Below are positions 48,428 to 63,891 of a stretch of 64,000 nt of DNA, piece after piece. Both the position numbers and the translations under genes were made by a program. The DNA is from Acidobacteriota bacterium (GTDB taxonomy: Bacteria; Acidobacteriota; Thermoanaerobaculia; Multivoradales; UBA5704). The stretch lies in contig JBDTZG010000028.1 of assembly GCA_040005235.1 (NCBI GenBank), positions 6,940 through 70,939 on the forward strand, in the 5' to 3' direction. Numbering within the stretch: position 1 is the stretch's first letter; each line of letters begins with the position of its first letter. The notes under the pieces were generated by a model that saw only the letters and a program-made list of their open reading frames with translations, was not told the origin of the DNA and did no database searches.

Positions 48428-49888
48428 GTGTCGCAAAATCCTGTGCCGCTGCTTGCCGTGGTGTTGCGGAATCTCCGCGAGCGAGCCGGCTGGACCCAAG
48501 TCCGGCTCGAACGCGAGGCTCGCCTCAGCAAGGGATCGCTCTGCCGGCTGGAGAAGGGCAGCCAGACGGTCGATCGTTTCCTGCTCAATCGGCTGGCGAA
48601 GGTGATGAGAATCGCCGAGGGTGACGTGGAACAGGCGCTCGCAGTGCTGGAGCAGCTCCCGGCGGAGACCGGCGCCGGTTCGTCCGCGGACCTGCCGGTT
48701 CGCGACCGGCAGACGATCGAAACCGTCAGCGCGCGCTTTTCCCGCATGGTTCGCGAGAAGGCCCAGAACCGAATCGGGGGGAAGGTCCGCGCCCGGCGCT
48801 GGCGTCTCGACCGCGCGGCGGCCGCCGTGGCGTGGCAGCGGCTGCGCAAAATGCCCTCCGAGGATCGCCGGCTGATCGTTAAAGCGGTTGAGGCCTTTCA
48901 CACCTGGGCGGTGGTGGAACGGCTTTGCGAGGAGAGCGTAAGGGCGGCGGCCAGCGATATGGAGGAGGCCCGTAGGCTGGCGCAGCTTGCCCGGCAGGCC
49001 TCGACGGCCGCGAGCGGTGCCGAGCGAAGATATAAGTCGCTCGAAAATTACGCGGCGGCCTTCGAAGCGAACGCCTGGTGCGCTGCCGGCGAATTTCGGA
49101 AAGCCGAGCAGATTTTTGCCGAGGTCGATGCGCTCCATGGAGAAGGGCTGGACATCGCGGCAGTACCGGTCGATTGGGCCAGGCCACTGATCTTTCGAGC
49201 GGTGCTTATGATTTATCGGGCGAACCTCGATCCGGCATTGGAATGGCTGAACGAGGCGCTTTCGCTCACTCGCTCGCCGACCGTCAAGACTTGGGCGTTA
49301 ATCTGGCGAGCCGCTGTGCTCAAGCGGAAGCTCCAATTTCCCGCGGCGCTTGAGGAGCTGGAAAAGGCTCGGCCGTACGCCGAGCTTGCAGGCGATGCCC
49401 GGCTTCGATGGGCCATCGCCTTCAATGAAGCGGGTTATTTATGCGAAGCCGGCCATTTGGCGGAGGCTGCCGCCCGCCTTCCAGCCCTGAAGCTGGCAGC
49501 GTTGGAGCTCGGAGGAGCTCTGGATCGCCTGCGGCTCCGCTGGTTGACCGCGAGAGTGGCTGCTGCTTCAGGCCTGTTCCAGGAAGCCGCGACGAACCTC
49601 TCCGAGGTTTGGAATGCCTTTGCCGACCGGAACCTCTGGCTCGACGCGGCGATCGCGGTTCTCGAGCTGGCCAGCATCAACCTGGAGATGGGTCTGTCTG
49701 CCCAGGTCAAGAAGCTCGCCACGGCATCTGCTCACGTCTTCGCGGCGCAGACCCTGCCCGACCACCTTCTCGCGGCGGTTCGACTATTCTGGCAGGCCGC
49801 CCTTCAGGAAGCGGCCACTTCACAAATGGCGCGACAGCTGGTTGGGGACCTTCGCCGCGCCATGGTGGCAAACGCCGAAGCCTCCTGA
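48428..49888 (+). CDS. long XRE-HTH regulator with helical-repeat (TPR-like) C-terminal domain (R1)
   Basis: HTH LRNLRERAGWTQVRLEREARLSKGSLCRLEKG. Family signature FHTWAVVERLCEESV. About 300 aa of helical repeats. GTG 48428 has RBS GAGGAG; the track start is TTG 48404. Confidence 0.75.
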   Translation: MSQNPVPLLAVVLRNLRERAGWTQVRLEREARLSKGSLCRLEKGSQTVDRFLLNRLAKVMRIAEGDVEQALAVLEQLPAETGAGSSADLPVRDRQTIETVSARFSRMVREKAQNRIGGKVRARRWRLDRAAAAVAWQRLRKMPSEDRRLIVKAVEAFHTWAVVERLCEESVRAAASDMEEARRLAQLARQASTAASGAERRYKSLENYAAAFEANAWCAAGEFRKAEQIFAEVDALHGEGLDIAAVPVDWARPLIFRAVLMIYRANLDPALEWLNEALSLTRSPTVKTWALIWRAAVLKRKLQFPAALEELEKARPYAELAGDARLRWAIAFNEAGYLCEAGHLAEAAARLPALKLAALELGGALDRLRLRWLTARVAAASGLFQEAATNLSEVWNAFADRNLWLDAAIAVLELASINLEMGLSAQVKKLATASAHVFAAQTLPDHLLAAVRLFWQAALQEAATSQMARQLVGDLRRAMVANAEAS

Positions 49889-50395: not shown

Positions 50396-51220
50396 ATGAA
50401 CGACGCCTTGGATCGCCGCGCGGCAGGCTTGGTGATGCAGTTGTTTCGCTTCATGGCCGGCCGCCACCAGCACGACCTGAGCGAACGGACCGGGATCGAC
50501 ATAAAGCGGATTTCGCGTTACGAGCAGGGAAAAGTTCTGCCTCTTCGGCCGACGCTCGAACGACTCGCTGCGGGCGTCGGCGTCTCCGCGACCCGGCTCG
50601 ATCAGCTTCTCGCGTTGATTCGCACCGTGTGCGCCGAGGGCGAGGCGGCGACCGCCCAAAAGGAGCACGCCACAGCAGACCCCGACGAGTCCGATTGGCC
50701 GGACGATCTCGCCGAGCTGGCGGCGGAGATCGCCGAAGACCTACAGCCCGAGATTTACCAAGCCCTGAAGGAATTGAACGCCGAGCTGAACGCGCCGCCT
50801 CCGCCACTCGCCCCGGAAGCGGCGCGCGCCCAGGCTCGGGAGCTATGGGGAAGGTTCGAACCCTTGCCGGATCGCGTTCGCCGCCTGGTGATCGAACATG
50901 GCAAGGAGTACCAAACCTGGGCCTTTTGCGAACGGCTCTGCGAAGCAAGCCTCGACGCCGGATCGCGCGCGCCGGAGGACGGTCAGGCCTTGGCCGACCT
51001 GGCGCTCTCGGTCGCCGAGGCCGCCCAAGGGTCCGACGTGCTGCGCCAGCGCCTGACCGCCTTCGCCCTCGCCTGCGCCGCCCACGCGGATGTCCTCGCC
51101 GGGGACTCGGAAGAGGCCGCCGAGAAGCTGGGCCGGGCCAAGGCGCTCTGGACGGCCGGGGACGGCACCGACGATCTCGACCTCGGCCAGATCGCCGATC
51201 TGGTGCCCGCCGACTCGTAA
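50396..51220 (+). CDS. short XRE-HTH regulator paralog (R2)
   Basis: RBS GGGAGG lies before ATG 50396. HTH HQHDLSERTGIDIKRISRYEQG. Signature YQTWAFCERLCEASL. It lacks the long C-terminal repeat domain. Confidence 0.7.
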   Translation: MNDALDRRAAGLVMQLFRFMAGRHQHDLSERTGIDIKRISRYEQGKVLPLRPTLERLAAGVGVSATRLDQLLALIRTVCAEGEAATAQKEHATADPDESDWPDDLAELAAEIAEDLQPEIYQALKELNAELNAPPPPLAPEAARAQARELWGRFEPLPDRVRRLVIEHGKEYQTWAFCERLCEASLDAGSRAPEDGQALADLALSVAEAAQGSDVLRQRLTAFALACAAHADVLAGDSEEAAEKLGRAKALWTAGDGTDDLDLGQIADLVPADS

Positions 51221-51229
51221 GGAGTCCCC

Positions 51230-51631
51230 TCAGTTCGGCGCCCGCCGACTTGCGTCCGGCGGAAGCTCCGGCGGCGGCGGGCCGAGACGGCGCTCCAGGT
51301 CGGCGATCTTCTGTTCGAGATCTTCCGCCAGGATTTCGAGAGCCTGACAGAGCCGGTCCTCTTCCTCGGTCACCGTCGAGAGCCGCCGGGTCGCGGCGAG
51401 CCCGGCGAACGCCTGCTTTGTATGCCAGAGGTCGTCGATGCCGGCGCGCGTTCCCGCCTTGAGCCACGGTTCTCCGAACCCCGAGCCGTCTTCCAGCTCC
51501 AGCGCTTCCTCGGCGATCTTTTCGCAGGCATCCTGGACGCGTTGGCGCAAACCCGGCCGGGTGAAATGGACCAGGACCGACTCGCGGAACGGCGCCATCT
51601 CTCTCCAGCGGCGCTTGATCGGGTTGGTCAT
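51230..51631 (-). CDS. hypothetical cytoplasmic protein (S1)
   Basis: 133 aa, with a 4-nt overlap with the upstream S2 gene. No recognisable motif. Confidence 0.5.
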   Translation of the reverse strand: MTNPIKRRWREMAPFRESVLVHFTRPGLRQRVQDACEKIAEEALELEDGSGFGEPWLKAGTRAGIDDLWHTKQAFAGLAATRRLSTVTEEEDRLCQALEILAEDLEQKIADLERRLGPPPPELPPDASRRAPN

Positions 51632-52062
51632 CCTGGGGATGCCCGTCGCTCAGTCCGCACGGCGGCCCGGTGCCGGCCCAGGCGTCTCTCCTGCACCAGA
51701 CCCAGGAATGCGTCCCGATTCGCGGCCCCATGGGTCATCAGCGCCGCGAAGACCCGAAGGTTCAGACGGGCACCTTCCGGGGGCGGTGTACCTTCCAAGA
51801 GGGCGAGCAGTCGGGCGGCCAGCTCCGGCAAGATGCCCCCTCGCCCCTGGCGCAACAATACGGTTCCCAGCTCGATGTAGGCGTCCGCCGCTGCCATCAC
51901 CTCGCCCGATGCGCGCCAGGTTCCCGCGGCGCGGCCGAACAGTCGCGCCGCCTCTTCGAGGTTCCCATCGTCCCGCTCGCGCTCGGCCCGGTCGAAGATC
52001 TCTCCGGCGGCCCGCCGCAACTCGCCGGGTGCGAGGGGAGAGGCCGGACTTACAGAGGCCAT
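51628..52062 (-). CDS. hypothetical helical protein (S2), resembles the C-terminal module of R1/R3
   Basis: 144 aa. ...DDGNLEEAARLFGRAAG...AADAYIELGTVLLRQG...LAARLLALL... parallels the R1 and R3 C-termini and paralog S3. Confidence 0.55.
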   Translation of the reverse strand: MASVSPASPLAPGELRRAAGEIFDRAERERDDGNLEEAARLFGRAAGTWRASGEVMAAADAYIELGTVLLRQGRGGILPELAARLLALLEGTPPPEGARLNLRVFAALMTHGAANRDAFLGLVQERRLGRHRAAVRTERRASPG

Positions 52063-52499
52063 TCCATTCCTTTTCTGTGCTTCCGGACGTCCGCGAGCAA
52101 CTCGCCTAGTAACGGCGAGCTCGGCGGGGTGATCTCGAGCAAGAGCAAAAGGTTGGAAAAAAGCTCGATTTCCGGCGGCGCCACGGCGAGCGTCGCCGGC
52201 TTGGCGGCGAGCCAGTCCGGCAGGTCGACACGTTCAAGGCGATAGACCGCGGCCAGCGAGAGCGCCGCTAGCCCTTCGAGCCAGGGTTGCTCCGCTTTGC
52301 CGAAGGCATGGACGGCGAGAATAAAACTCTCTTCTGCCTGGGACAGGTTGCCCGCCGCCGCGGCGCGCTCGGCAAAATCCATCGAGCGCCAAGCCAACCG
52401 GAAAAAAGCCGGATGCGCCGGTTCCTTAGCCGGCGCATCCGCGGGCCCTGCGAGCGCGAGAGGGGGTGCGGGTCGCCCGCAGGGGAAAAAGGAGTCCAT
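52050..52499 (-). CDS. hypothetical helical protein (S3), paralog of S2
   Basis: 149 aa. ...AAGNLSQAEESFILAVHAF...LAALSLAAVYRLE... has the same layout as S2. 13-nt overlap with S2. Confidence 0.5.
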   Translation of the reverse strand: MDSFFPCGRPAPPLALAGPADAPAKEPAHPAFFRLAWRSMDFAERAAAAGNLSQAEESFILAVHAFGKAEQPWLEGLAALSLAAVYRLERVDLPDWLAAKPATLAVAPPEIELFSNLLLLLEITPPSSPLLGELLADVRKHRKGMEWPL

Positions 52500-57158: not shown

Positions 57159-58613
57159 ATGCCCAAGGTGGACCTGCCGCCGACGAATGCGGCGCTATTG
57201 ATTTTGCGCATCCTGTGTCGCCTGACACAGGATGAGTTCGGCGAGCTGACCGGCATGAAGAGCCGGATCGTCGAGATCGAGAATGGCCGGTATGTCCTTA
57301 AGCGCGCCGAGCTCGAAGATCTGGTGGAGGAGCTCAAGGTGTCGGCCTACGCGGTGCCGGTCGCCCTCGGCCTATCGGAGCTGGTGTTGCCGTCGACCGA
57401 CAAGACCCCCCACCCCTGGGAGGCGACGCCCGACGCGCGGTTTCAGGCCGAGCGCGCGACCCTCGAATCGTCCGCCATCGTGCGCCGTCTGTTCCTCGCC
57501 GAAGCGCGCGCGGAGCGCTACGCGGCGGACCGCGAGGAGGCCGAGCGCCTCTGGAAGCTGCTTGCGCCGCTCAATCGCGACCGGCGGCGGGTGATGGCCC
57601 GGATCGTCGATTTCTCGACCTGGGCGGTGGTCGAGCGCCTCTGCATCGAGAGCCTCAGGGGAGCGCCTCGGGATCCCGGGGCCGCCCGCTCGCTCGCCGA
57701 GCTGGCCGTTGAGGTGGCCCAGAGGATTCCGCCGCTGCCCAGGTTCAGCGATCGGGTGGAAGGGTACGCCCAGGCCCACTTGGGCAACGCCTTTCGAGTC
57801 GGGAACGACTTTGACGAGGCGGTTCGCGCTTTCGCGCTCGTCGCGAAACTTTGGATCGAGTTCCTGCCGGGCGAGGCCTGCCCGTTTGACGTGACGCTGA
57901 TCCCCGACCTAGAAGCTTCTCTGCGCCGCGATCAGCGTCAATTCTCCTTAGCGTTCGCTGGGCACGACCGGGCTCTTTCCTTCGCTGTCGAGGATGCGAT
58001 CCGCGGGCGCATCCTCCTCAATAAGGCAGTGACATTCGAGCATTCCGGCGATCCAGTTGGTGCGGTTGCAACTCTCAGCGCTGCTCAGCCTCTTATCGAC
58101 ACGAGCAACGAAACCCGGCTGGGTTGTGTCGCGCGTTTCAACTTGGCGGTCAACCTCCTCCATCTTGGAAACGCCTTAGATGCCGAGCCGCTGATCGCCG
58201 AGGTGCGGGCGCTTGCGATCGAACAGCGAAACGAGCTTGACCTGATCCGGGTCCTTTGGCTCTCCGGCCGCCTTGCCGCCGCGCAAGGAGATCGGGCGAA
58301 GGCGATGGTCTCGATCGATGACGCGGCCTGTCGCTTCGCCGAACAGGGCCTCGGATATGACGCCGCACTGGCGGTGCTCGACCTCGCGGGGCTGCTCTTG
58401 GAAGAAGGCAACCCGAGAGAGGCAGCCCGGAGGGTGGCCGAGGTGCAACCCACTTTCCACGTGCGAAACATTCACCGGGAGGAACTGGCGAGCCTGGTTC
58501 TGTTCCTCCAAGCCGTCGAAACCGAAGCGGCGACCGCCGCGCTGGCGCGCGCGGCGGCCGAGGCCTGGAGGTTGTTCGGCACGCCCGTTCCTTTCGGAAG
58601 TCTGGCCGACTGA
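57159..58613 (+). CDS. long XRE-HTH regulator with helical-repeat (TPR-like) C-terminal domain (R3)
   Basis: HTH LTQDEFGELTGMKSRIVEIENG. Signature FSTWAVVERLCIESL. The C-terminal repeats are collinear with R1. Confidence 0.75.
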   Translation: MPKVDLPPTNAALLILRILCRLTQDEFGELTGMKSRIVEIENGRYVLKRAELEDLVEELKVSAYAVPVALGLSELVLPSTDKTPHPWEATPDARFQAERATLESSAIVRRLFLAEARAERYAADREEAERLWKLLAPLNRDRRRVMARIVDFSTWAVVERLCIESLRGAPRDPGAARSLAELAVEVAQRIPPLPRFSDRVEGYAQAHLGNAFRVGNDFDEAVRAFALVAKLWIEFLPGEACPFDVTLIPDLEASLRRDQRQFSLAFAGHDRALSFAVEDAIRGRILLNKAVTFEHSGDPVGAVATLSAAQPLIDTSNETRLGCVARFNLAVNLLHLGNALDAEPLIAEVRALAIEQRNELDLIRVLWLSGRLAAAQGDRAKAMVSIDDAACRFAEQGLGYDAALAVLDLAGLLLEEGNPREAARRVAEVQPTFHVRNIHREELASLVLFLQAVETEAATAALARAAAEAWRLFGTPVPFGSLAD

Positions 58614-58619
58614 AATGAA

Positions 58620-58952
58620 CTACTGGCCGCAGCGACCCTCTGGGTCGACGACGCAACCCGCGTCGCGAAGGATCGGCGCCGGGGCACTCGACGAACCGCA
58701 GCGGCCGTAGGGATCGAGGCTGCAGCCCACGTCGCTGAGGATCGGCACCGGGGCGCTCGACGGGCCGCGGCCGCCGTGGGGGTCGAGGCTGCAGCCCTCC
58801 TCCTCCCAGAGGGCCGAAAGAAACGACCAGCCGCGGGCGAACAGGTCGGGGAGGGTGCGATCGAGCGGCAAGGCGCCGGCCGGGAAGGCACTGAGGAGGA
58901 AGAGGGCTAGCAGAGCGACGGCGAGGGCGAGGTGACGCTTCGGTTGGGGCAT
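58620..58952 (-). CDS. small secreted Cys-loop repeat peptide (pepB, 110 aa)
   Basis: Signal peptide MPQPKRHLALAVALLALFLLSAFPAGA, then FLSALW and three modules: GCSLDPHGGRGPSS, GCSLDPYGRCGSS and the terminal GCVVDPEGRCGQ. The modules are encoded by 69-bp tandem DNA repeats. Confidence 0.7.
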   Translation of the reverse strand: MPQPKRHLALAVALLALFLLSAFPAGALPLDRTLPDLFARGWSFLSALWEEEGCSLDPHGGRGPSSAPVPILSDVGCSLDPYGRCGSSSAPAPILRDAGCVVDPEGRCGQ

Positions 58953-59028
58953 GGCGGTGGGCTCCTGGTCAGCCCGGGAACCTCCGGCCGGGATGGCCGG
59001 CGGCCCGGTACGAAGGGGTTCAGAGGGT

Positions 59029-59046
59029 AACCCAAGTTTTTGGGTT
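59029..59046. promoter_or_regulatory. AT-rich inverted repeat between pepB and R4
   Basis: AACCCAA-GTTT-TTGGGTT, with perfect 7-bp arms, 22 bp upstream of the R4 ATG. Confidence 0.4.
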
Positions 59047-59067
59047 CATTTTTCTCTTGGAGGGATC

Positions 59068-59955
59068 ATGGAACGGAAATCCGGCAGAACGCGAGACGTT
59101 CGCTCAGGACTCAGTGCGGCACCCACCCCTGGCGCCGCCGCGAAGGGGGGAAGGGCCGCGGCCAAAGCGCGGGACGCCGAGTACTCGGCTCTGTTGGTCC
59201 GGTATATGGATGCGACGGTCGGCCCGCGGCACGACCAGTTCGCGGAGTTGGTCGAGATCAGCGCGGCGCGGGCGAGCCTCTACCGCTACGGCTACAAGGT
59301 GCCCCGGCCCGAGACGAAGGCCCGTTTCTCCGGCCGGGTCGGGCTGCCGATCGAATGGTTCGAGGCGATGACCGCCGACTCGTTGTTTCTCCGCGGCAAA
59401 AGCTCAAAGCCGGCGGGAAGTACTCCCGCAGCCCTGGCGGAAGACCTCTCCCGCCGGCTCGCGGGCCAGCTCGCCCCGCGGTTCGCGGCGTTGCGCAGCG
59501 TAGCCCCCGCCGCCCCTCCTCCTCCTCCTCCTTCGCTCGAACGGGCGGCGGCCGATCGAGCCGAGGCGGACCGGCATTGGACCGAAATCGAGCCGCTCAC
59601 CGCCGCCGAGCGCGCCCTCGCGGTGCCGGAGATCCCGAGGTTCCACTCCTGGGCGCTGGTCGAGCTGCTCTGCGGAAAAAGTGTAGAGGCCGCGCCCGTG
59701 TCGCCGGCCGAAGCGCTCGCCCTCGCCAAGCTGGCCATACGACTGGCCCGCCGGGTCCAAGCAAGCCAAGGATTTCGCGACCGCCTGATGGGCTACGCCC
59801 TCCTCCACTCGGCCGCCGCACTCAAGAGCCTGAACGACCTGCCGCGAGCCCGGGAAGCCCGCGCGCGCGGGCTACGGCTTTTCGCGGCGGGGCGGAAGGA
59901 GGATCCGGGGTTGCTGGATGAAGCGATCGCCGAGGGACTCGCGTCGTCGTCGTAG
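59068..59955 (+). CDS. short XRE-HTH regulator paralog (R4)
   Basis: RBS GGAGGG lies before ATG 59068. HTH-like HDQFAELVEISAARASLYRYG. Signature FHSWALVELLCGKSV. Confidence 0.65.
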   Translation: MERKSGRTRDVRSGLSAAPTPGAAAKGGRAAAKARDAEYSALLVRYMDATVGPRHDQFAELVEISAARASLYRYGYKVPRPETKARFSGRVGLPIEWFEAMTADSLFLRGKSSKPAGSTPAALAEDLSRRLAGQLAPRFAALRSVAPAAPPPPPPSLERAAADRAEADRHWTEIEPLTAAERALAVPEIPRFHSWALVELLCGKSVEAAPVSPAEALALAKLAIRLARRVQASQGFRDRLMGYALLHSAAALKSLNDLPRAREARARGLRLFAAGRKEDPGLLDEAIAEGLASSS

Positions 59956-59985
59956 GGCCGGCGGCATTCTGGGAAAGGGGAGCGC

Positions 59986-60013
59986 GGGCGCCGTCGAGGA
60001 GCGGGCGGCGCCC
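59986..60013. terminator. GC hairpin between convergent R4 and Q1 (bidirectional terminator candidate)
   Basis: GGGCGCCG-N12-CGGCGCCC. An identical copy lies 722 bp away. Confidence 0.45.
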
Positions 60014-60023
60014 GGGAATGCAT

Positions 60024-60584
60024 TCAGGGTGTGGATGCCTGAGCGAGGAAGGCACCAAAGACATCAGTAGGCACGTGGTCGATCTGGGCGCCGGGGCTGT
60101 TTGCGGCTTCAGAGAAGAAGTCCTCTATCGCTTGGACCGACCGAGCGAACGCATCGCTGCAAATTGTTGGAAATGCAGCGCCGAAGCCGAAGGTTTTTGT
60201 CACTTTGCTCGTGCCTTTCCTACCGAACCAAGTGACCGCGGAGACGAAGACTTCGCCTTGTCCTGGAACGTCCCGATAAGCGCAGTGGCCACGCTCGGAA
60301 CCGAATCGGTTCTCGGACAGGGCCTGCTGTAGCCGGCGGACGGCATCCGAAGTACCCCGGGCTCGAATCAGGGTCGTTTGGCCGGGCGACCGCTGGGTGC
60401 TGATCAACAGGCCATCGCGAAAGATGACGTAGTCGATATTTGTCTTGAAGCCGGTCACCTCGTCGTCGACGTGGGCCGTGCGACGAACGAGGTAGCTTTC
60501 GGGTGCCGGCGTCTGAGCCAGCGCCAGCGTGGGCAGGATCAGTGCCAGGGCATAGAGCCAGAAAACGGGTCTAGTTGCTCTCAT
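60024..60584 (-). CDS. secreted protein of unknown function (Q1), tandem paralog of Q2
   Basis: ATG 60584 with RBS GGAGG. Signal peptide ...LALILPTLALAQ. Near-identical to Q2 over 186 aa. Confidence 0.7.
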   Translation of the reverse strand: MRATRPVFWLYALALILPTLALAQTPAPESYLVRRTAHVDDEVTGFKTNIDYVIFRDGLLISTQRSPGQTTLIRARGTSDAVRRLQQALSENRFGSERGHCAYRDVPGQGEVFVSAVTWFGRKGTSKVTKTFGFGAAFPTICSDAFARSVQAIEDFFSEAANSPGAQIDHVPTDVFGAFLAQASTP

Positions 60585-60707
60585 ACGACACCTCCGGGGC
60601 GAGTATTCCACGGAACTACACGAACAATACCGGTTTGCCGGTTACAGCTTGTCAGTGGAGCGAGACATCCGGTTGTCGCCCAGGATTCTTACGGCGAAGG
60701 GACAAGC

Positions 60708-60735
60708 GGGCGCCGTCGAGGAGCGGGCGGCGCCC
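60708..60735. terminator. GC hairpin downstream of Q2 (duplicate of 59986-60013)
   Basis: The same GGGCGCCG-N12-CGGCGCCC hairpin at a +722 bp offset. Confidence 0.4.
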
Positions 60736-60745
60736 GGGCATGCAT

Positions 60746-61306
60746 TCAGGGTATGGATGCCTGAGCGAGGAAGGCACCAAAGACATCTGTAGGCACGTGG
60801 TCGATCTGGGCGCCGGGACTGTTCGCGGCCTCAAAGAAGAAATCCGCGATCGCTCGGACCGAGCGAGCAAATGACTCGCTGCATTGGGACGGGAATGCGG
60901 CGCCAACGCCGAAAGTTTTCGTCACCTGGCTGGTTCCCGTTCTTCCGAACCAAGTTACCGCTGAGACAAAGACTTCGCCTTGCCCCGGGAAGTCGCGATA
61001 CGAGCAGCGATTACCCGCGGTGCCGAACCGGTTCTGGGAAAGCACCTGCTGCAGCCTTCGGACGGCATCTGCCGTGCCCCGGGCTCGAATCAGGGTCGTT
61101 TGGCCCGGCGACCGTTGGGTGCTGATCAATAGGCCGTCTCGAAAGATGACGTAGTCGATATTTGTCTTGAAGCCGGTCACCTCGTCATCGACGTGGGCCG
61201 TCCTCCGGACGAGGTAGCTCTCGGCTGCCGGTGTTTGTGCCAGGGCCAACGTTGGCGGGTTCAGCCCCAGGGTACAGATCCAGAAAAGGTAACTTCTCGC
61301 TCTCAT
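60746..61306 (-). CDS. secreted protein of unknown function (Q2)
   Basis: ATG 61306 with RBS GGAGG. Signal peptide and the same sequence family as Q1. Confidence 0.7.
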   Translation of the reverse strand: MRARSYLFWICTLGLNPPTLALAQTPAAESYLVRRTAHVDDEVTGFKTNIDYVIFRDGLLISTQRSPGQTTLIRARGTADAVRRLQQVLSQNRFGTAGNRCSYRDFPGQGEVFVSAVTWFGRTGTSQVTKTFGVGAAFPSQCSESFARSVRAIADFFFEAANSPGAQIDHVPTDVFGAFLAQASIP

Positions 61307-61332
61307 TCGCCACCTCCAAGCCACAAAGTGCT

Positions 61333-62958
61333 CTAAGGTACTACCTGAACGATACCAGTTTGCCAGTTACAGCTCGCACCCGCAGGGCCAAAGTTCTCAC
61401 CGGCAAGCCACAGGCTCCCGCCAGATGGATCAGCCTGCGCACCTGAGTAGTCGCCCGTTTTGCCTGAGCTTCCCCCTCTTGAGCAGGTTCCCGGCCGCAG
61501 GACGTTCAGGGGTGAGAAAGCCGCAGAGCCCGAGACCCTCGTGAGCCAGCCCGAACCGTGATGCAAGCTAGCCGACCCCATGTGCAGCGCCAGCCCTATT
61601 CGGCCGCTGTTCGTCACAGCGATCGAGGGCATCCAGAGGAAGTTATTAGCCGACAAGCCAACGGTGGTTTGCTCGGCGAGGGGCGCCAGAAATCCGCTGG
61701 TCGTAGGTGCAAGGTTGAAGCGGAGGACCCGGAAGCAAGCTTCATTGTTTCCAGCGGCGATCTGGCATCCGGTAGTCTGAACAGCCCAGATGGAATCACC
61801 GATTCCCGCGACTTGGAGGATTCGGGAATCCCCCGTCTCCAGAGAGATTCCGGCCGGTTGGGGGGCGTCGGGAGGCGTCGTATACATCCGCAGGCCCAGA
61901 ACTTCGGTCATCTCTAGGCGCGGAGCCGTCGTTGCGCCATCGCGAATCCTCCAGACCCGATAACCCTTCGCGGGCGATCCCTTCGCGCTGATCAGATATC
62001 CGGAGGTGCCGCCGGTGGCGCTGGGGAGCGTGTAGTGCTGCACGGGCTGGAGAGTTTGGGCGTTCGCGGCTTCAAACGCGGCAAGCGGGAGAGGGCGGAA
62101 GGTCACAGCGGCAGGAAGTGCCGGGCAAGTTGCGACGTTATTGACCAAAGCTGCCTTGGCTAGTATCCGGAGAAGTGGATATCCACGCGATACATTGGCG
62201 TTATCCACCACGAACTGATTCGTCGTCACCATCACCACGTCTCGCCCCACGCCCAGGCTCGGGTAGTCGGCAATCGCCTTGTCGGCCGTGGTGATGTCCG
62301 TTCGGGCCTCCGTGGAATACCGGCACCACTGTGCGGCATCCAGGCCTGTCGGGTTGGCGCTCCGCGACACGGCGAGAAACAGCTTTTGCGGGTCGCCGTT
62401 GACCACCTTCTCCAGGACGACGACAAAGAAACGCTGGGAGTTGCGATCGTAGAAGACCTTGGGGTCGAAGACCCCCGGCGACTCGGGGATTCCGAAGAAT
62501 GCCGCGGTGGTCCGTGTCACACGGATCGTTCCGTCCGTATTGAACAGCCGCAGGGCGGCGTTGACCGCTTCGAGGACTCGATCGGTGCTGCGGGCGATGC
62601 CGACGTCTGGAGGCGTCTTCTGGCCGCCGGCCAGGTAGTCGAGCCCCGGAAAGCTCGCCGCGAGTGTCGCCGTGCCGGAGCGCGACGCAAGAGCCAGCAC
62701 CACATCGGGCGGCTCGGCGTTGGGATCTATGAGCGCCGCTTCCTGCGCCTTCGTTAGTTCCTCAGGCGTCAAGCCGAAGGGTTCCGGCATCTCTTCGGCC
62801 ACCGAATCGCCGGGGGCCGGGTCGGGGTAGTCCACCTCGGGCAGCGGCTCGACCGGCGCTTCCATCTCCGGTTCGAAGATTTCAACGTCCTGGCTGCGCC
62901 CGGGCCAGGCGGCGAGGACGATTGCGACGCAGAAAATACCGAGCACTCTCGAATACAT
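61333..62958 (-). CDS. large secreted protein of unknown function (Y)
   Basis: Signal peptide MYSRVLGIFCVAIVLAAWPGRSQ and an acidic Pro-rich linker. The body is beta-rich and has no motif I can name. Confidence 0.65.
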   Translation of the reverse strand: MYSRVLGIFCVAIVLAAWPGRSQDVEIFEPEMEAPVEPLPEVDYPDPAPGDSVAEEMPEPFGLTPEELTKAQEAALIDPNAEPPDVVLALASRSGTATLAASFPGLDYLAGGQKTPPDVGIARSTDRVLEAVNAALRLFNTDGTIRVTRTTAAFFGIPESPGVFDPKVFYDRNSQRFFVVVLEKVVNGDPQKLFLAVSRSANPTGLDAAQWCRYSTEARTDITTADKAIADYPSLGVGRDVVMVTTNQFVVDNANVSRGYPLLRILAKAALVNNVATCPALPAAVTFRPLPLAAFEAANAQTLQPVQHYTLPSATGGTSGYLISAKGSPAKGYRVWRIRDGATTAPRLEMTEVLGLRMYTTPPDAPQPAGISLETGDSRILQVAGIGDSIWAVQTTGCQIAAGNNEACFRVLRFNLAPTTSGFLAPLAEQTTVGLSANNFLWMPSIAVTNSGRIGLALHMGSASLHHGSGWLTRVSGSAAFSPLNVLRPGTCSRGGSSGKTGDYSGAQADPSGGSLWLAGENFGPAGASCNWQTGIVQVVP

Positions 62959-63129: not shown

Positions 63130-63891
63130 TCACCCCCGGTGACGTTGCAGCAATGAGAACAGGTAGCGGATGCGGGTGAGAAGGTCGTCGGCCGCCCGCT
63201 CGAAGGCGGTTTCCCGCTCCTTGTCGGTGCCTTCGACGCCGGAAGGGTCGGGGATGCTCCAATGGATCCGGTTACGCGCACCGGGGAAGATGGGGCAGGA
63301 CTCGCGGGCGTTGTCGCAGACCGAAATCACATAGTCGAACGGTTGGTCGATAAATTCGTCCAGGGGCTTGGACCTCTGGCCGCCGATGTCGATGCCCCGG
63401 GCTGCCATGGTCTTGATCGCCAGCGGGTGCACACGGGTGACCTCGGTGCCGGCGCTCCGCACTTCGACCTGGTCGCCGGCCATGTGGCGCAAGATCCCCT
63501 CGGCCATCTGAGATCGCGCGCTGTTGTGGGTACAAAGGAAGAGCACCCGGCCCCGCCTTCCTGCCTCGGTCAGCGGCAGCTCCCGGGTGTCGGGCTCACT
63601 CCCAAGACCTGGATGCAAAATTTCACCTGTGCTCATGAGCATCCCCTTCAGTCGGTCCAGATCCAAGCTGTAGTAGACATCCCGTCGATCCGCGGCGCTG
63701 CGCCGCTCCTTGACCAGAGCGAATTCCCGCAGCTTCCGAAGGTGGTAGGAGACGAGGTTCTGCGGTTGCTGGAGCACCCCGACCAGCTCCTGCACGCGCC
63801 GATCGCTGTACGCCAGAGCTTCGAGAAGCTTCCAGCGTTGCTCATCGGCAAGGAGCTTGAGGAACGGGGGAAAGGCCGAGGTTGCGTCCAT
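63130..63891 (-). CDS. ArsR-family HTH fused to LMW-PTP-type arsenate reductase
   Basis: N-terminal ArsR wHTH (RVQELVGVLQQPQNLVSYHLRKLREFALV). C-terminal ArsC/LMW-PTP P-loop VLFLCTHNSARSQMAEG (CX5R) and ...DYVISVCD... Confidence 0.85.
   Translation of the reverse strand: MDATSAFPPFLKLLADEQRWKLLEALAYSDRRVQELVGVLQQPQNLVSYHLRKLREFALVKERRSAADRRDVYYSLDLDRLKGMLMSTGEILHPGLGSEPDTRELPLTEAGRRGRVLFLCTHNSARSQMAEGILRHMAGDQVEVRSAGTEVTRVHPLAIKTMAARGIDIGGQRSKPLDEFIDQPFDYVISVCDNARESCPIFPGARNRIHWSIPDPSGVEGTDKERETAFERAADDLLTRIRYLFSLLQRHRG

Follow-up and report, generated by a model that had tools for sequence, protein, structure and literature searches.

Textbook tandem amplifications are young, near-identical, unstable and often multi-copy. 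Tandem duplications and amplifications that arise in bacteria by unequal or illegitimate recombination have been reviewed for resistance genes (PMC11721125), and IS-independent and non-canonical forms of amplification were also described (PMC13423834). Partial or chimeric duplicates, which leave gene fragments at their boundaries, have been treated in general (PMC3449122), as have concerted evolution and gene conversion between prokaryotic paralogs (PMC6053082). In this study, we analysed a tandem pair of small genes, Q1 and Q2, in a window of 64 kb (the whole stretch of DNA under analysis). Like the bacterial tandem amplifications (PMC11721125; PMC13423834), the pair forms a short chromosomal head-to-tail repeat with a novel distal-to-proximal junction, and its breakpoints lie within flanking genes, so that a partial gene copy is found at the joint. 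Unlike textbook amplifications, the locus holds two copies that are 17% diverged, with saturated synonymous sites outside the converted tracts, and it has been fixed long enough for one copy to have an ortholog in another population. Q1 and Q2 are tandem paralogs of an unremarkable kind, old and retained, whose junction is neat and whose mosaicism is in part unexplained, and we propose, with a probability of roughly 0.6, that they go back to a single in-situ 722-bp head-to-tail duplication that is old, was retained and was later partly converted. Orthologous Y-Q loci for comparison were taken from other Thermoanaerobaculia/Holophagales MAGs and carry L numbers below. The features of the locus are as follows.

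58951-59955, plus strand: H2, a convergent XRE-HTH/TPR-type regulator paralog, conserved downstream neighbour of Q, which bounds the duplication
59984-60095, minus strand: 3' homogenised tract within the Q1 unit, comprising gene nt 490-561 and the hairpin (partner in the Q2 unit, 60706-60817)
59986-60013, minus strand: GC hairpin copy 1, between the Q1 stop (60024) and the convergent H2 stop (59955)
60024-60584, minus strand: Q1, a 186-aa paralog (annotated ABJC13_14690; RBS GGAGGT at 60591-60596)
60355-60479, minus strand: mid-gene homogenised tract of Q1 (gene nt 106-230; partner in Q2, 61077-61201)
60608-60649, minus strand: relic of the 3' end of Y, 13 codons and the former stop, upstream of Q1, translating to SCNRQTGIVRVVPW
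60650-60707, minus strand: 3' flank of Q2, 56-58 nt, distal end of the repeat unit, recognised by homology to L005
60708-60735, minus strand: GC hairpin copy 2 (stem of 9-10 bp), terminator-like and located 10 nt downstream of the Q2 stop, recognised as an exact 28-nt repeat and by folding
60746-61306, minus strand: Q2, a 186-aa small secreted protein directly downstream of intact Y (annotated ABJC13_14695; RBS GGAGGT at 61313-61318)
61333-62958, minus strand: gene Y, intact, a 541-aa secreted protein modelled as a 7-bladed beta-propeller

Window positions 59984-60649 and 60706-61374 are direct repeats of about 84% identity (556 of 662 aligned positions match in a local alignment), and the 722-bp tandem duplication described in an earlier note on this DNA is a real head-to-tail repeat. 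As that note had stated, the starts, stops and RBSs of Q1 and Q2 and the 28-nt GC hairpin are all shifted by 722 bp, on which local alignment and repeat search agree. The repeat search returned D1 (59975-60274/60697-60996, 84%, spacing 722) and D2 (60602-60649/61327-61374, 79%, spacing 725). The single offset given earlier thus holds for Q, its RBS and the hairpin, but not for the relic, where it is 725 because of a 3-nt indel. The copies are adjacent, in the same orientation and at a constant offset, that is, in tandem head to tail, and 666 of the 722 nt of the unit align between them. The flank that ends copy 2 (56 nt) scores no better than chance against 59928-59983, the stretch below the copy 1 hairpin, and has no detectable homolog there, so that the homology seen between the copies stops short of the full unit. 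The duplicated unit also includes this 56-nt 3' flank (60650-60707), which runs from hairpin copy 2 to the relic and had not been part of the earlier description. The junction therefore lies at 60649/60650, between CCACTGACA and AGCTGTAACCGG, which together span 60641-60661. Here the Y-tail relic abuts the Q 3' flank without foreign filler, as a distal-to-proximal joint, and neither an IS element nor a long flanking repeat was visible at the breakpoints in the repeat search.

The flank of Q2 is about 80% identical to the sequence that follows the Q hairpin in L005, a distant locus (score 58 compared with a null maximum of 35), and this homology shows the flank at the copy 2 junction to be a genuine Q 3' flank. 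It gave no significant match to the sequence upstream in Y or to the stretch below the hairpin of Q1. Among the fetched loci its 16-nt core motif is present in L005 (L010 is the same contig), and a blastn search with relaxed settings turned up no additional copy, either in the window or in other loci. A dispersed repeat was considered for flank and hairpin and rejected, since the window has no more than two hairpins and, among the fetched loci, the flank core was seen beyond the window only in L005. An origin of the flank as a copy of the 3' end of H2 was likewise discarded; compared directly, the two match no better than by chance, and by way of L005 the similarity reaches only p = 0.05. Amino-acid resemblances between flank and H2 are too weak for use.

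The relic corresponds to the last 13 codons and stop of Y (61333-61374). The C-terminus of Y reads SCNWQTGIVQVVP before its stop, compared with SCNRQTGIVRVVPW in the relic, and 38 of 49 nt match in register (binomial p about 1e-12). In 10 orthologous loci, Y always ends in SCNWQTGI[VI][RQK][VL]VP and a stop, about 20-27 nt before Q. All orthologous Y genes end with this peptide, and the relic therefore truly derives from Y. Two proposals of the earlier note, that the spacer upstream of Q1 is a diverged copy of the last codons of Y and that the duplicated unit took in the tail of Y, are borne out by these matches. The Trp of the tail, invariant in a 24-sequence family alignment, is replaced by Arg in the relic (TGG to CGG), and the stop TAG became TGG. 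The frame has an in-frame stop 18 codons upstream and no start codon from there to the end of the relic; read through without an initiator, it terminates in a TGA that overlaps the ATG of Q1. With its coding integrity lost and its source in a conserved coding part of Y (the 13-residue end seen in 10 loci), the relic is a pseudogene fragment. No other remnant of Y was detectable, and an extension of the relic further into Y was not significant (junction against Y upstream, p = 0.06-0.14). As in boundary-fragment duplicates (PMC3449122), the 3' fragment of a neighbouring gene was co-duplicated and then decayed; here, it is tiny (13 codons), lacks a start codon and shows no sign of new-gene recruitment.

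In favour of the explanation preferred here, the relic keeps ACC, CGT and CCG like most orthologs, whereas the Y of the window and that of L007 share the derived ACT, CAR and CCT. On the other side, its identity is 34/42 to the tail of the neighbouring Y and 30-35/42 to distant orthologs, so that it is no closer to the former, and only two of its bases are not seen in functional Y tails. More changes would be expected in neutral DNA if its age were that of the saturated parts of Q. A conserved RNA structure across the Y tail and the start of Q was considered as an explanation for the preservation of the relic and rejected, as only a 4-bp stem without covariation was found.

The 64 kb contain exactly two copies of the hairpin GGGCGCCGCCCGCTCCTCGACGGCGCCC, identical to each other, and its stem is conserved in the corresponding position of 8 Q loci, about 7-25 nt past the stop codon. 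Like intrinsic (Rho-independent) terminators, it is a stable GC-rich stem-loop just past a stop, and the Q1 copy lies between convergent genes. Unlike them, it has no U-rich tract 3' of the stem on either strand (the stem is followed by GCGCUCCCCUUUCCC or GCUUGUCCCUUCG), and a terminator consensus scan did not call it. Of the "terminator hairpin" in the earlier note, the duplication of a GC hairpin along with the unit stands, but the missing U tract and the silent scan leave its function as a terminator a possibility: the hairpin may act as one. A sigma-70 promoter scan of 59.8-63.2 kb found none, and an Rfam scan of 57-64 kb at E <= 1 gave zero matches. Q1 might have its own promoter or be transcribed by read-through.

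The model of Y shows an all-beta fold of seven blades, and Y is predicted to be a secreted 7-bladed beta-propeller. Y had no match in Pfam, NCBIfam or PADLOC, no known propeller family (WD40 etc.) could be assigned, and it belongs to no known family. The same is true of Q. The Q1 and Q2 proteins are identical at 154 of 186 residues, and both genes retain the RBS, the signal peptide and two invariant cysteines. Their coding sequences differ at 97 of 558 sites (17%), distributed 20/16/61 over the three codon positions, with a dS of 0.62, a dN of 0.095 and an overall dN/dS of 0.15. Both copies have been under purifying selection for a long time. In the Tajima relative-rate test, 27 changes were specific to Q1 and 48-49 to Q2 (p about 0.012-0.015); Q1 is the slower-evolving copy, and the rate of Q2 is about 1.8 times that of Q1.

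In codons outside the homogenised tracts, pS between Q1 and Q2 is 0.566 and dS about 1.05 (saturated), the plateau that Y also reaches between lineages (pS 0.57-0.62). The Q of L007, an independent metagenome, is the ortholog of Q2: the two group in 100% of bootstraps, for the whole gene and the unconverted part alike, to the exclusion of Q1. The duplication therefore predates that split. Wherever the contig permits the check (L001, L003, L008, L009, L013 and L017), a single Q was found, and single copy is therefore the common state; the contigs L006 (848 bp, ENA ERZ926170) and L007 (823 bp, ENA ERZ27256657, ending inside Q) are too short for this check. Scans of genome and metagenome collections for more Q loci returned single-copy or dispersed ones only and no second tandem pair. 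The order Y-Q, followed by H2 and H1 on the opposite strand, is conserved in L003, L008, L009 and L017, and the C-terminus of H2 matches the convergent gene after Q in L017. The gene downstream of Q in L005 was examined as a hidden Q paralog and rejected, since its homology is to another of the conserved neighbours.

The divergence of Q1 and Q2 is a mosaic. In the 3' tract, 2/66 coding sites differ between Q1 and Q2 as against 9/66 between Q2 and the Q of L007 (gene nt 490-555; 3.0% vs 13.6%), and in the mid-gene tract (nt 106-230) 6/125 as against 15/125 (4.8% vs 12%). Both tracts are 95-97% identical between Q1 and Q2, closer than Q2 to its ortholog, with a dS of 0.18 compared with 0.38. Concordant polymorphic sites are clustered, the longest run comprising 17 sites in the 3' tract (Sawyer-type test, permutation p = 0.004) and 13 in the mid-gene tract. 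Moreover, both Q1 and Q2 end in LAQAS[TI]P, a derived C-terminus, as against AAPAPM in L007. The greater similarity of the tracts between Q1 and Q2 than between Q2 and its ortholog argues for gene conversion later than the duplication, and indicates that the two tracts were probably homogenised between the copies after the L007 split. This resembles conversion between other prokaryotic paralogs (PMC6053082) in that the tracts are more alike than orthologs (3-5% vs 12-14%) and concordant sites cluster. It differs in that only about one third of the gene and the hairpin are homogenised while the rest diverged freely; the pair is therefore a mosaic and does not evolve in concert as a whole.

The earlier note took the repeat as direct evidence of ongoing gene amplification, that is, of an unstable tandem array expanding under dosage selection. 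Tandem direct repeats are a substrate for more amplification, and the two nearly identical tracts would permit unequal crossing-over. However, the units of this repeat are not near-identical (84% identity, dN/dS 0.15, and a dS of 0.62 that rises to 1.05 when only unconverted codons are counted), there are only two of them, and the orthology of Q2 with L007 leaves out Q1. Gene conversion between the copies is the only activity seemingly younger than the duplication. A copy that is ancient, kept by selection and patched by conversion is therefore not a sign of ongoing amplification, a reading with next to no probability. Collapse or expansion during assembly is implausible because the copies are so different, and this also speaks against a chimera in which the assembler concatenated variants of the Y-Q locus from two strains or species that occur together. 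Such a chimera is conceivable for a MAG contig from which alone each Q protein is known, and the close Q contigs that might hold a second copy are the two very short ones. The relic, however, cannot be a functional allele, as both its stop and the invariant Trp are gone, and it is preceded by the Q 3' flank and not by Y, so that a chimera needs a junction k-mer found in neither parent; we consider it very improbable.

A larger duplication of Y and Q, followed by deletion of all but the last 13 codons of the second Y, would turn 60649/60650 into a deletion scar. Two complete Y-Q loci do occur in one MAG (L012 and L013), as in some related MAGs, and the 56-nt flank has no partner in copy 1. Yet this needs two events where one suffices, and the Q 3' flank runs uninterrupted up to the relic with no further trace of Y, which makes it improbable. 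A possible, if unlikely, alternative is that the Q1 unit (Y tail, Q1 and hairpin) is DNA of a related lineage that recombined beside the resident Q and was partly homogenised with Q2, for example anchored by homology in the hairpin and the conserved 3' end of Q and joined illegitimately at 60649/60650. The relic has only two degenerative substitutions, which might suggest that it was still a functional end of Y not long ago. Relic and spacer best match L006 (35/42 and 19/26, compared with 34/42 and 15/26 for the adjacent Y/Q2), the unconverted dS of Q1 and L006 (0.86) is at or below that of Q1 and Q2 (1.05), and the L005-like flank of Q2, together with discordant divergence patterns of Y and Q across loci, hints at inter-lineage exchange. 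No sampled lineage is clearly the donor, however, and these differences rest on stretches of 42 and 26 nt and on saturated dS. Neighbour joining keeps Q1 with Q2 and L007 in 99% of bootstraps for the whole gene and 60% for the unconverted part, in which Q2 does not stand out clearly from L006 and L001 as the nearest sequence to Q1. In-situ duplication with early conversion from the Y tail fits the same facts.

Under the preferred single in-situ duplication, the ancestor would have carried Y, Q and the GC hairpin, followed by the convergent H2. One head-to-tail duplication of 722 bp, with breakpoints 13 codons before the Y stop and about 56 nt past the hairpin, presumably by illegitimate or unequal recombination, would have produced Y-Q2-hairpin-flank joined to Y-tail relic-Q1-hairpin-H2. 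Y would have been left intact, while the copied tail became a dead fragment without the invariant Trp and the stop. Both Q copies would then have been held by purifying selection, with Q2 evolving about 1.8 times faster, and after the split from the L007 lineage conversion would have homogenised the middle of the gene as well as its 3' end and hairpin. Potentially, the copies were retained because they diversify a secreted partner of Y or serve its dosage.

The general view of genome evolution is unchanged by this locus. It is chiefly valuable as a clear case study of an old tandem duplication in a bacterium, and it corrects the idea of a locus that is currently amplifying. The old junction is still legible because the co-duplicated scrap of Y matches a strictly conserved C-terminal beta-strand, and comparison with the orthologs places the event in time against a lineage split and tells conversion tracts apart from freely diverging sequence. 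The locus also draws attention to a small conserved gene pair in Thermoanaerobaculia/Holophagales, a secreted propeller and a small secreted protein, as a putative module. It is tempting to speculate, although we regard this as doubtful, that Y-Q is a clade-restricted module of a secreted 7-bladed propeller and a small disulfide-bonded secreted partner, always beside XRE-HTH/TPR regulators, into which the second Q was inserted in tandem as an allele of a related lineage and then partly homogenised. If true, this would mean that inter-lineage recombination diversifies the alleles of a secreted protein that acts in specificity or as a partner.

Sequence reading of positions 59700-61700 of the window, which belongs to an Acidobacteriota MAG, repeat finding and local alignment revealed two direct copies, 59984-60649 and 60706-61374, identical at 556 of 662 aligned positions. 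Each copy carries one of the tandem small secreted-protein genes Q1 and Q2. The order on the minus strand is Y (a secreted-protein gene), Q2 and Q1, followed by the convergent plus-strand gene H2.

Features of the repeat and its neighbours
62958 to 61333, minus strand: Y, 541 aa
61306 to 60746, minus strand: Q2, 186 aa, annotated ABJC13_14695
60650-60707, minus strand: flank of the Q2 hairpin, 56-58 nt, between hairpin copy 2 and the relic
60608-60649, minus strand: relic of the Y 3' end, 14 codons, reads SCNRQTGIVRVVPW; the end of Y is SCNWQTGIVQVVP*
60584 to 60024, minus strand: Q1, 186 aa, annotated ABJC13_14690
58951-59955, plus strand: H2, convergent gene, XRE-HTH/TPR-type paralog
57159-58613, about 48780-49835 and about 50435-51055, plus strand: further XRE-HTH/TPR-type paralogs

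The Q1 and Q2 proteins share 154 of 186 residues. Both genes have the RBS GGAGGT 6 nt ahead of the ATG and a 28-nt GC hairpin 10 nt past the stop, which has no third occurrence in the 64 kb and, unlike a canonical intrinsic terminator, lacks a U tract. With this shared RBS and hairpin, and Y-like codons between Q2 and Q1, the duplication proposed in the earlier note is borne out. Its offset of 722 bp holds across hairpin, gene and RBS, but a 3-nt indel raises it to 725 bp over the final 49 nt.

The relic matches the end of Y in register at 38 of 49 bases (chance probability near 1e-12); an extension further into Y was apparent only and not significant. Among the loci fetched from related MAGs and metagenome contigs, Y is directly followed by Q in ten (L001, L003, L005, L006, L007, L008, L009, L012, L013 and L017). 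In all nine where the end of Y was read, it is ...SCNWQTGI[VI][RQK][VL]VP*, with Q starting ~20-27 nt further on. The proposed origin of the relic in the 3' end of Y is thus confirmed by this common peptide and the in-register identity. In the relic, Arg replaces the invariant Trp and Trp replaces the stop. It lacks a start codon, and 18 codons upstream its frame is closed by a stop. What remains is a dead copy of a coding end that is conserved in functional Y genes. Nothing suggests a regulatory element merely resembling the Y end: an Rfam search gave no match, and no conserved RNA structure spanning this region was found. Having lost its stop, the relic frame (60585-60649, minus strand) runs to a TGA overlapping the Q1 start (ATGA), as is typical of translationally coupled genes. 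Since this frame contains no in-frame ATG, GTG or TTG, the overlap is probably coincidental.

The 56 nt past hairpin copy 2 are ~80% identical to the sequence that follows the hairpin of Q in L005 (score 58, null maximum 35), so that we rejected their interpretation as filler. One end of the unit therefore lay ~56 nt beyond the hairpin and the other 13 codons inside Y, with the duplication joint at 60649|60650. The stretch below the Q1 hairpin is now the H2 3' end, matching the H2 ortholog in L017, and no similarity between it and the copy-2 flank could be detected. The matching flanks are at 60650-60707 in the window and 975-1030 in L005; Q protein identity between the two loci is only 59%, with dS at saturation. 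A relaxed blastn search of the other fetched loci and the rest of the window gave no further copy of the 56 nt. Constraint on a 3' UTR or promoter element could explain the match, as could past exchange between lineages.

Q1 and Q2 differ at 97 of 558 sites (20/16/61 by codon position), with dS 0.62, dN 0.095 and dN/dS 0.15 (Nei-Gojobori), and the divergence is strongly mosaic along the gene.

Q1-Q2 difference along the gene
nt 1-105: 25%
nt 106-230: 4.8%
nt 231-489: 24%
nt 490-555: 3%

Past the gene end, the hairpins of the two copies agree at 28/28 positions. The diverged parts (pS 0.566, dS 1.05) lie at the saturation plateau that Y reaches in comparisons of the window with all lineages (pS 0.57-0.62) but L007 (pS 0.28). 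In neighbour-joining trees with codon bootstrap, Q2 grouped with the L007 Q in 100% of replicates, for all sites and diverged parts alike; (Q1, (Q2, L007)) was recovered in 99% for the whole gene, but in only 60% for the diverged parts. Grouping and saturation together indicate that the duplication predates the split of the window organism from the L007 organism; its age may be close to that of the splits from L001 and L006. The Y-tail codons give the same ordering: the relic retains ACC, CGT (Arg) and CCG, as do most orthologs, and the functional Y tails of window and L007 share derived ACT, CAR (Gln) and CCT. The ongoing amplification put forward previously is ruled out by synonymous saturation and by these two orderings. 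Outside the low-divergence tracts, Q2 has ~1.8 times the changes of Q1 (27 in Q1 vs 48-49 in Q2; p about 0.012-0.015). In the L007 ortholog of Q2, an A-run at about 466-485 is longer by one A (CCAAAACG vs CCAAACG), which shifts the frame and reflects either an error of assembly or a pseudogene in the L007 population. The first ~100 nt of L007 are unlike Y.

Within both low-divergence tracts, Q1 differs less from Q2 than the L007 ortholog of Q2 does (3.0% vs 13.6% and 4.8% vs 12%; pooled dS 0.18 vs 0.38). Both carry a derived C-terminal LAQAS[TI]P, whereas L007 has the AAPAPM-type end of L006 and L001, and the longest concordant run comprises 17 polymorphic sites (run test, p = 0.004). The defining features of gene conversion are present in this pair, which resembles known conversion between paralogs (PMC6053082). 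In the 3' tract, Q1-L007 divergence is at ortholog level (15%), which suggests Q2 as the donor.

Several observations stand out as unusual. Conservation of the copy-2 flank with distant L005 is far above that predicted from coding sequence. Only two relic bases are absent from working Y tails, and the neighbouring tail (34/42) is no closer to the relic than distant ones (30-35/42); the relic's spacer is most similar to that of L006. Y is about equally far from all orthologs and Q is not, so that the two are discordant in tempo or history. Amino acid identity to the orthologs is 75-80% throughout for Y (dS plateau about 1.1), and 56-83% across the same loci for Q. Conversion from the Y tail at an early stage would fit the flank, relic and Y/Q distances. 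If the Q1 unit had instead come in from a related lineage, this would likewise account for the flank's likeness to L005, the relic and spacer affinities and the Y-Q discordance; we keep this as a rival of low probability. An assembly chimera is unlikely, as the relic no longer functions and neither parental arrangement contains the junction sequence.

Relatives are few in a large protein collection (13 for Q, 26 for Y), and no Pfam domain is present in any of them. Y, modelled as a secreted propeller, has no family assignment; strict adjacency in ~10 loci suggests at most that Q is its co-transcribed small secreted companion. Wherever a contig reaches beyond Q, a single Q is found (L001, L003, L008, L009, L013 and L017), and among the loci fetched only the window has a tandem pair; one copy is the usual state. 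A matching GC stem follows Q in L001, L003, L009, L013 and L017, and convergent orthologs of H2 and of H1, its companion regulator gene, come next in L001, L003, L008, L009 and L017. Some MAGs hold two separate Y-Q loci, as SMAG_U11143 does with L012 and L013. La3_concoct.109 has one such locus, L010, and in L014 a partial match to Q that may be frameshifted. The family has therefore been duplicated in dispersed form too.

Several H1/H2-type genes lie in the last 16 kb of the window, and most related loci keep H2 and H1 next to Y-Q in convergent orientation. Homologs of two small genes, which follow the H genes in related loci and directly follow Q in L005, lie ~8 kb from Q1 (51422-52143, minus strand), so the wider module is conserved but rearranged. 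Immediately upstream of Y is a fused ArsR-type HTH and low-molecular-weight phosphotyrosine phosphatase/arsenate-reductase-like gene (63130-63891, minus strand). In L001 and L003 this place is taken by sucCD, peptidase S51 and ndk; the module's left flank therefore differs in the window. Large CHAT-protease/TPR proteins are encoded near the module in L003 (11010-12498) and L005 (4440-6936).

The Q1/Q2 repeat shows defining features of bacterial tandem duplications (PMC11721125, PMC13423834) and lacks those of recent amplification, and partial-gene relics at duplication joints (PMC3449122) are among the closest known cases to the Y-tail relic. The locus is a fresh example of a known phenomenon, well preserved and instructive, but unsurprising.
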